Below are positions 10,797 to 11,663 of a DNA stretch of 29,757 nucleotides, one piece after another; position 1 is the stretch's first letter, and each line of letters begins with the position of its first letter. The DNA comes from a virus (lineage: Duplodnaviria; Heunggongvirae; Uroviricota; Caudoviricetes): positions 1-29,757 of IMG/VR virus record IMGVR_UViG_2534681675_000023; one strand, written 5' to 3'. A program made the translations under genes and the position numbers. The notes below the pieces were generated by a model. That model was not told where the DNA came from. It saw only the letters and a list, made by a program, of their open reading frames with translations, and did no database searches.

Positions 10797-11141
10797 ATGC
10801 AAAGAATTATTCCTGATAAAAATTGGTGGGAAAAAGAGCGTATTAATCGTAAAGCATCATCAAAATGCCCATATGCTAGTTCATACAGATGTCCTCGGTA
10901 CTATCAGAGTGTAGTTTTGCTCTCAAGCATCAATATGATAGCTGGTATGGCAACTAGGAAAGAAAAAGAGTTGGGCGAATTTGGGGAAAGAACTAGTTTC
11001 TCATATTTATGTGATGAAGAAGTCCCAACAGTTACTACAAAAGAATATGGCGGCCTTGCATCAGTTAGTAATTTTTGCCCAGAAATATCATTTAGATATT
11101 TACACTATTACGCCGATTATATGTGTAAATATGTTGATTAG
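10797..11141 (+). CDS. Hypothetical Cys-rich protein (island operon 1, gene 1)
   Basis: 114-aa ORF in strongly AT-rich DNA (long ORFs are improbable by chance at this composition); five Cys including C-x7-C. Confidence 0.5.
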   Translation: MQRIIPDKNWWEKERINRKASSKCPYASSYRCPRYYQSVVLLSSINMIAGMATRKEKELGEFGERTSFSYLCDEEVPTVTTKEYGGLASVSNFCPEISFRYLHYYADYMCKYVD

Positions 11142-11210
11142 ATAGATCAGGATACTGGCAGGCGTAGTGCGGAAAAAGATAATTTAGAAAATGATTGGAA
11201 ATATACATGG

Positions 11211-11663
11211 ATGTCAGTCAATCCTAAATTTTATTTAGATTGCGATGTTTTTGAAAGTGTCAAAAACTTCAATGAAGAATTGGCTAGTGATTACTTAAAG
11301 AGATTGCATCCAAATATCATTCAGCAAATAGATAGAATGAATAATTGCTTGGATAATAATGACCCTGCGGGTGCACTGCACGCAGCCTCTAATATTCTAG
11401 AAACTATGGCGAAGGAAATCACTCAAAACCCGAATGTGGCAAATGAGTCATTGGGTGGTTTTTTTAAACAGTTCGAAAAAATGTCAAAATTACCTAAGAA
11501 TCTTATTGATATTGTTAAAGATATTTATGATTTACGCAACAAACTACCTACTGCTGGACACGGAAGCTTGAACAGGCCTGAATTAACTATGGTAGAAGCT
11601 ATAACTATTGCGGCAATGACAAAGGCGATTTTAGAAATTGAATATCGAAGCAAAGCCATCTAA
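11211..11663 (+). CDS. Hypothetical alpha-helical protein (island operon 1, gene 2); possible HEPN-like R-x(n)-H motif
   Basis: 150-aa ORF 69 nt downstream of previous ORF, AT-rich codon usage; motif DIYDLRNKLPTAGHG. Confidence 0.55.
   Translation: MSVNPKFYLDCDVFESVKNFNEELASDYLKRLHPNIIQQIDRMNNCLDNNDPAGALHAASNILETMAKEITQNPNVANESLGGFFKQFEKMSKLPKNLIDIVKDIYDLRNKLPTAGHGSLNRPELTMVEAITIAAMTKAILEIEYRSKAI

Follow-up and report, generated by a model that had tools for sequence, protein, structure and literature searches.

A candidate HEPN anti-phage gene of 288 codons is interrupted by an amber codon in a Rac-like lambdoid prophage

Two neighbouring open reading frames (ORFs) in a prophage may be partners or may be pieces of one gene. 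This question is raised by a 29,757-nt stretch of viral DNA (Caudoviricetes; IMG/VR record IMGVR_UViG_2534681675_000023, positions 1 to 29,757; hereafter the window), in which an initial annotation made from the sequence alone described an operon encoding a Cys-rich protein of 114 amino acids (aa) and a helical, HEPN-like protein of 150 aa. Both ORFs are found on the plus strand, at 10797-11141 (114 aa) and 11211-11663 (150 aa), and the low G+C content (GC) described for the region holds as well, with 0.35-0.37 over 10501-12000 against 0.47-0.55 in the flanks. The operon does not hold: the two ORFs share one frame, are parted by one TAG and 23 sense codons, and are the halves of a single gene cut by a nonsense mutation. 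On balance, we think it probable that the intact form of this gene is an AbiJ-like HEPN anti-phage candidate that is amber-split, and most likely dead, in the window.

Read in one frame, positions 10740-11670 are continuous but for a single amber codon at 11139-11141 (plus strand), which is codon 115 of the interrupted gene. The codons between this stop and the next ATG (codons 116-138, 11142-11210, plus strand) are in frame and free of stops. The whole gene occupies 288 codons at 10797-11663 on the plus strand, a span that equals exactly the 867 nt of the intact coding sequence (CDS) in other Escherichia coli; single-frame translation, intact CDSs elsewhere and full-length homologues agree on these limits. 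In this numbering, the 114-aa ORF corresponds to residues 1-114 and the 150-aa ORF to residues 139-288.

We used window positions 10400-12000 as a Megablast query against 5,426 complete E. coli genomes. Eight genomes have a copy at least 99% identical that is annotated as two hypothetical proteins, and ten records, about 95.5% identical, are annotated as one protein. Copies in P2-like prophages match query positions 11-1502 at 95-96% identity, and pairwise alignments show that homology stops at both ends of this segment. Together with the GC profile, these alignments delimit a low-GC cassette of about 1.49 kb (10410-11901, plus strand), which is what the lambdoid and P2 contexts have in common and which consists of the gene flanked by about 390 bp on its upstream side and about 240 bp on the other. 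Scans of the cassette for promoters and terminators and against Rfam gave nothing above background.

The P2-like prophage copy of E. coli 120899 (DNA 95.8% identical) is one 867-nt CDS encoding a protein of 288 aa (WP_016569949.1). Aligning the two DNAs shows GAG (Glu) at codon 115 in E. coli 120899 and TAG in the window, a single G-to-T change, and a codon table of 10 alleles likewise places the amber codon at this position. NCTC9064 has, in a defence island, a copy of 80% identity that likewise encodes 288 aa in one CDS and has GAA at codon 115. The ratio of nonsynonymous to synonymous substitution rates (dN/dS) is 0.15 between the window and the P2-like copy and 0.23 between the window and the NCTC9064 copy. 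By these ratios the gene is clearly under purifying selection, and with its conserved homologues this bears out the view of the initial annotation that the region is genuine coding DNA.

Of the 40 homologues that a protein search identified, about 30 are unsplit and full-length, each one ORF of 286-296 aa; these span Gammaproteobacteria, with members in Escherichia, Salmonella, Serratia, Hafnia, Pectobacterium, Vibrio, Shewanella, Vreelandella and Pseudomonas; more copies occur in Rahnella, Methylophaga, Nitrosomonas, Desulfobulbaceae and others. Position 115 is variable (Glu in E. coli, Ala in Salmonella P0193), and no homologue outside this lineage is split at, or uses a stop at, codon 115. 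A seemingly intact lambdoid allele of 288 aa with Gln at position 115 (P0001) was rejected as a gene-caller artefact, the underlying DNA (metagenome contig L024, 619-1485) having TAG. P0001 is a database cluster representative; the metagenome gene caller evidently took TAG as sense, and several other members of its cluster are the 114-aa and 150-aa fragments themselves. Conserved co-occurrence of two genes, on which the operon reading leaned, is likewise not seen: the pair is a single gene in other genomes, and across six genomic contexts it has no conserved neighbour. With one frame, a single TAG and a fused product everywhere else, we rejected the two-gene operon.

To place the stop within the protein, we compared a profile of 22 full-length members with 1.84 billion representative proteins, obtaining 617 matches at E<=1e-3. 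These matches cover either profile positions 1 to ~157 or positions ~165-286, independently of each other. The first part is nearly always N-terminal, in proteins of 150-820 aa, and the second is mostly C-terminal in the proteins bearing it. The protein therefore consists of two mobile domains fused near residue 163: an N-terminal alpha/beta domain (N-domain; residues 1 to ~163, 10797-11285, plus strand, limits taken from this search) and a C-terminal, Abi_C-like HEPN-fold domain (C-domain; residues ~166-288, 11292-11660, plus strand). Since the boundary lies near residue 163, the stop at codon 115 is inside the first domain, and the helices and strands that follow this codon are consequently lost from the 114-aa product.

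Structure prediction locates the cut more closely. A first AlphaFold model, built from the 22 sequences, was unreliable in the N-domain, with a predicted local distance difference test score (pLDDT) of 36-60; with stand-alone homologues of the domains added to the input, the mean pLDDT was 92.2. In the latter model, the N-domain has helices at residues 8-18, 33-44, 53-64, 95-102, 115-127 and 152-163 and strands at 78-81, 87-91, 106-111 and 138-143. The TAG falls where helix 115-127 begins, before strand 138-143, C149 and helix 152-163. In the intact protein, codons 116-138 encode helix 115-127 and the first part of strand 138-143, within which the 150-aa ORF begins. That ORF accordingly contains the final strand and final helix of the N-domain together with the whole HEPN domain, and the 114-aa ORF is a truncated N-domain.

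The cut also divides a conserved set of cysteines. The 114-aa ORF has the five Cys originally counted (C24, C32, C72, C94 and C109), including the C24-x7-C32 spacing. Three of these, C24 (10866-10868), C32 (10890-10892) and C94 (11076-11078), are invariant in 42-84 divergent N-domains, as are C149 (11241-11243, plus strand like the others) and a His at about position 145 within an 'HY..CP' element. The stop parts this four-Cys set, leaving three in the first ORF and C149 in the second. Each invariant Cys is followed by Pro (CPF, CPRY, CPE, CPLY). Little or no variation is seen at W63, E74, P95, E96 and D117 either, W63 being invariant in three family alignments and nearly so in a fourth. The four Cys-Pro motifs and the His suggest a bound metal or cofactor. 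The N-domain has no Pfam or PDB match; PDB sequence searches with the full-length and N-domain profiles returned chance matches only.

The C-domain is a helical bundle (residues 172-287) in the same AlphaFold model, and this all-alpha up-and-down bundle of the ~110-130 residues typical of the HEPN superfamily gives the domain, as modelled, the HEPN fold that the initial annotation expected. The motif DIYDLRNKLPTAGHG noted in the 150-aa ORF is present, and at 11535-11564 (plus strand) the gene encodes RNKLPTAGHG, an RN-x6-HG motif with putative catalytic Arg and His. The family alignment shows no variation at R247, H255 and G256, and the R, P, H and G of the motif are invariant in 42 divergent C-domains. 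Over a broader set of 64 divergent domains, the R, H and G of RN-x6-HG remain invariant and the spacing of six is kept in 62. A range of R-polar-X(2-6)-H is given for Abi_C proteins, and RN-x6-HG lies within it (PMC13590631). The guess that the C-terminal part is HEPN-like therefore stands up well, with Arg and His invariant in 64 divergent relatives and an Abi_C match just below threshold. We infer that the C-domain is a ribonuclease (RNase). NCBIfam returned nothing, and PHROGs only weak matches of unknown function.

This arrangement resembles that of the AbiJ/Abi_C proteins, among them Lactococcus AbiJ (Abi-859), SadR of Staphylococcus aureus and Taranis of a Vibrio integron, which are likewise single proteins with a variable N-domain and a C-terminal HEPN domain. 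They have an R-polar-x(n)-H motif, matched here by RN-x6-HG in a HEPN-fold C-domain, and they sit on mobile elements, as does this gene. SadR, with the motif RNEYGDAH, is an RNase that blocks phages and plasmids, and its R, N and H mutants lose both RNase activity and defence (PMC13590631). Taranis, an Abi_C cassette of a V. cholerae integron, has anti-phage activity (bioRxiv 10.1101/2024.07.02.601686). In contrast to these systems, the spacer after the polar residue is six here, at the top of the reported 2-6, the N-domain is an unannotated four-Cys domain and not AbiJ_NTD3, 4 or 5 (no AbiJ_NTD matches this protein at E<=1), a stop truncates the protein of the window, and the 288-aa family is known from sequence only. 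AbiJ_NTD4 precedes the C-domain in 3 of the 42 proteins sharing it, and the PADLOC AbiJ model is matched by two of 42 C-domain relatives at 7e-4, though not by this protein.

Other known systems are more distant. Unlike minimal HEPN toxins and RNases (HEPN-MNT 5yep/7ae2, LsoA/RnlA, AbiV, HepS, Csm6/Csx1), the gene has no MNT or antitoxin partner in any context examined, its motif is R-x7-H instead of R-x4-6-H, and its HEPN domain is fused to a distinct N-domain that is not CARF, NRD or another known regulator. The PADLOC candidate PDC-S32 is matched weakly, with comparable geometry, by residues 201-268 of the protein (profile positions 199-263 of 285, E=0.008), and at 1e-5 by 2/42 C-domain relatives; however, the match to this protein covers the HEPN part alone and is not significant, and PDC-S32 is itself only a candidate. 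Bacterial TIR/SEFIR single-gene systems, as modular immune sensors, share with the N-domain proteins the pattern of a constant sensor and a variable effector, whereas this N-domain is without a family assignment or a solved homologue. The gene is not a new kind of system: it is a single-gene candidate of the AbiJ-like HEPN type whose N-domain had not been annotated before, and the copy here is broken.

We also considered what the N-domain is joined to in other proteins. TIR-type domains are its commonest partners (TIR_2 in 8/42, TIR in 4/42 and CAP12-PCTIR_TIR in 3/42, counts that may overlap), and the others include DpnII/MboI-type restriction endonuclease, protein kinase, Schlafen AlbA_2, SEFIR, PLD and TPR domains. 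Seven of 31 short-tailed N-domain proteins have a transmembrane helix, and a conserved amphipathic basic tail is the alternative end of short proteins. The tail, about 25 residues of roughly KPGxFGxxLxxKxLxxRxxxWWLxR, ends many short N-domain proteins and may be a minimal membrane-active effector or docking peptide; stand-alone relatives with tail or transmembrane ends are P0047, P0051, P0081, P0126, P0140, P0141, P0159, P0166, P0174 and P0177. PADLOC PDC-S66, ThsB and other TIR models were rejected as families for the N-domain, covering the TIR part alone in the two proteins inspected; PDC-S35 and bSEFIR models also match N-domain proteins.

Because the same domain is joined to TIR, SEFIR, restriction-endonuclease, PLD, kinase, Schlafen and membrane-helix effectors, we infer that the N-domain is a metal-binding sensor or regulatory module. 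A wider reading, which we put forward tentatively and hold to be possible rather than probable, is that it represents a new and widespread immune sensor or switch module of about 160 aa, perhaps binding a metal, an Fe-S cluster or heme, with at least eight kinds of effector under its control (HEPN, TIR, SEFIR, restriction endonuclease, PLD, kinase, Schlafen, and transmembrane or amphipathic tails). It would then define a new superfamily of single-protein defence systems with the 288-aa HEPN form of E. coli and Salmonella as its enterobacterial representative, and the frequent amber split in Rac-like prophages would be the trace of a costly abortive-infection gene being selected against or lost neutrally.

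The genomic contexts of the gene are those of mobile elements and defence islands. We compared the window with seven other TAG loci, six in complete genomes and one on a short metagenome contig whose flanks are uninformative. The TAG-allele gene sits in a Rac-like lambdoid prophage, in the order LexA-family repressor, Cro/CI, YdaT-family protein, helix-turn-helix (HTH) replication protein, DUF977, the split gene, a 210-aa protein, a zeta-toxin-family kinase and hok/sok; the 210-aa protein and the kinase are on the strand opposite to the split gene. An intact copy occupies a P2-like prophage hotspot between gpA/DinI-like and portal genes, adjoining Septu PtuA/PtuB. In NCTC9064, the intact copy lies between a DUF4297 and AAA-ATPase pair and an ATP-dependent nuclease and helicase pair, which, from RefSeq product names, we take to be DUF4297-HerA-like and Gabija-like. 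Elsewhere, intact copies are found in a Salmonella prophage, as a tail-end moron with DUF4145, GT4-conflict glycosyltransferase and small-integrase genes as neighbours; in V. cholerae, in an integron-like cassette array whose acetyltransferase and glyoxalase give it the look of a superintegron; in a Pseudomonas island, flanked by NACHT and KAP NTPase genes; and on Escherichia plasmids of 92-102 kb. Qualitatively, over the contexts listed, the neighbourhood is one of defence genes and hotspots. No neighbouring gene is conserved, and the gene is therefore a single-gene unit.

Turning to the window copy itself, TAG is present in all eight lambdoid-context alleles examined. Seven codons are polymorphic among these alleles, five of them nonsynonymously, and two of the nonsynonymous changes are at family-invariant residues: one strain has R34Q, whereas W63G is shared by the window and E. 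coli MB07081 and is not seen in the other six TAG alleles compared. In the window, codon 63 (10983-10985, plus strand) is GGG (Gly) in place of the family-invariant Trp (TGG), a second change that is probably damaging. Fragments in the protein collection show further variants, S38R and, within the motif of a 150-aa fragment, G254R. There are no tRNA genes in the window and thus no suppressor; a suppressor tRNA in the prophage was sought and none found. The window copy is most likely a non-functional, decaying pseudogene, its loss of function being a conclusion that we favour with some assurance.

Of the alternatives, the one that survives best is a functional split, in which the 114-aa Cys-rich protein and the 150-aa HEPN protein would both be translated and act as a toxin/regulator or Abi pair, reassembled non-covalently, or as the free HEPN protein alone. 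This comes close to the effector with a small Cys-rich partner initially imagined, and we consider it unlikely. The stop is inside a folded, compact domain, so that the first fragment keeps three invariant Cys while the fourth is in the 150-aa ORF; no other lineage is split at codon 115, all homologues being fused; on inspection of the sequence, no obvious Shine-Dalgarno sequence or other recognizable ribosome-binding site precedes the ATG at 11211; and TAG alleles already show changes at R34 and W63, with a further one, G254R, in the motif of a 150-aa fragment.

A second alternative accepts a single gene but not an RNase defence effector: the HEPN domain would not be catalytic and would instead bind a nucleotide or ligand or act as a scaffold, as do the HEPN domains of the KNTase type and of sacsin, and the protein would have another function on mobile elements. 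We judge this quite unlikely. The invariance of R, H and G of RN-x6-HG across 64 divergent domains argues against it, as do the nearest families, AbiJ and Abi_C, whose members include demonstrated RNases and defence proteins (PMC13590631), the classic immune effectors among the N-domain's other partners, and genomic contexts that are defence hotspots. Very improbable, finally, is a leaky amber codon serving as an expression throttle, with UAG readthrough or a host suppressor giving a little of a full-length, toxic abortive-infection effector: all eight alleles do keep the 867 nt open apart from TAG and position 115 does tolerate substitution, but the window lacks a suppressor tRNA, no homologue elsewhere has a stop at codon 115, and with W63G at an invariant residue the readthrough product would probably be defective too.

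Several observations weigh against our own interpretation, that of an AbiJ-like HEPN anti-phage candidate that is most likely dead here. On the side of function, there is no PADLOC model for the 288-aa family, a tblastn search of a phage-record collection gave no match to it, and our literature search found no report of the family or of phage protection by it. The Arg and His of the motif are separated by seven residues (RNKLPTAGH), which exceeds the canonical R-x4-6-H, an excess already remarked in the initial annotation. Against Pfam Abi_C (PF14355), the intact protein scores 18.9 bits, P0001 20.7 and the 150-aa ORF of the window alone 23.2, all below the gathering threshold of 24, and 9/22 family members match Abi_C at E<0.1. 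On the side of decay, the split allele is common (the 114-aa fragment on 93 contigs, 150-aa fragments on 90 and 613), both halves are otherwise still open, so that some function could be retained, and seven polymorphic codons are too few for a significant test of relaxed selection. Abi_C is also absent from the list of 25 families found among the 42 broader C-domain relatives (E<0.1), so that at most one of them matches. To judge from these profile scores, the C-domain family is a sister of Abi_C and not a clear member.

Under the interpretation of a single AbiJ-like HEPN gene, a mode of action can be proposed by analogy with other Abi_C and HEPN systems. The Rac-like lambdoid prophage would have acquired the gene on the 1.5-kb low-GC cassette also found in a P2-like defence hotspot. 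The intact 288-aa protein would be kept inactive by its N-domain until this domain senses a phage-derived cue and permits activation of a HEPN dimer. The activated or released HEPN domain would then cleave RNA, and the infected cell would stop growing or abort the infection. In the window allele, the change from GAG to TAG at codon 115 would cut this pathway inside the N-domain, with W63G as an additional lesion.

The surroundings of the gene offer observations of their own. The E. coli 120899 P2 hotspot stacks this gene with Septu and a second HEPN-like candidate, a 217-aa protein encoded next to the intact copy (L002, 9506-10159, minus strand) with a weak match to PADLOC 'RTasHEPN' (5e-5). 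The minus-strand genes downstream of the window and P2 copies were compared and are unrelated (210-aa against 217-aa protein, BLASTP E 0.11). In the window, a convergent pair on the minus strand (12202-13552) comprises a zeta-toxin-family P-loop kinase of 232 aa (Pfam Zeta_toxin, 7e-29) and, directly downstream of it, the 210-aa protein, which has no match in Pfam, PADLOC, NCBIfam or PHROGs. This pair is kept with the prophage in all Rac-like copies seen; it belongs to the low-GC moron region of the split gene and may be a toxin-antitoxin or defence pair. A terminator-like hairpin lies outside the cassette at 12164-12189 on the minus strand. Further on is a hok/sok type I toxin-antitoxin locus (sok RNA at 14409-14583, plus strand, Rfam 108 bits; ORF at 14521-14808), annotated hokD in related genomes, with hok marked partial in some strains.

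Just downstream of the gene, an 81-bp segment (11750-11830) is found at 91.5% identity in about 600 E. coli genomes (e.g. HKUOPY1), where it covers the end (3') of a gene for a short site-specific integrase (~200 aa) and the spacer behind it, the next gene encoding a DUF4145 protein. The intact Salmonella homologue is likewise beside DUF4145 and an integrase of 204 aa. The segment may be a shared recombination scar or a cassette boundary. Upstream, an IS3-family insertion element (8376-9589; ORFs at 8376-8702 and 8702-9589), whose OrfA and OrfB resemble those of IS629/IS1203, is inserted in an HTH replication-initiator-like gene (flanks at 7594-8370 and 9447-9869) that is uninterrupted in MB07081, where it is one 963-nt CDS (L001, 10508-11470). 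The window prophage is therefore additionally crippled. Also in MB07081, 'enterotoxin A family protein' and 'enterotoxin' genes (L001, 1-792) are found immediately past the integrase end of this prophage, outside the span homologous to the window.

The fragments occur on about 800 contigs, and the paired 'hypothetical proteins' of hundreds of E. coli assemblies are accordingly one disrupted gene. Its natural TAG and GAG alleles are a ready-made isogenic pair for studying function and cost. The trigger of the N-domain, once worked out, could explain the activation of a whole set of single-protein systems. The intact 288-aa protein is a broadly distributed anti-phage candidate, its gene moving among lambdoid prophages, P2 hotspots, genomic islands, plasmids and integron-like arrays.

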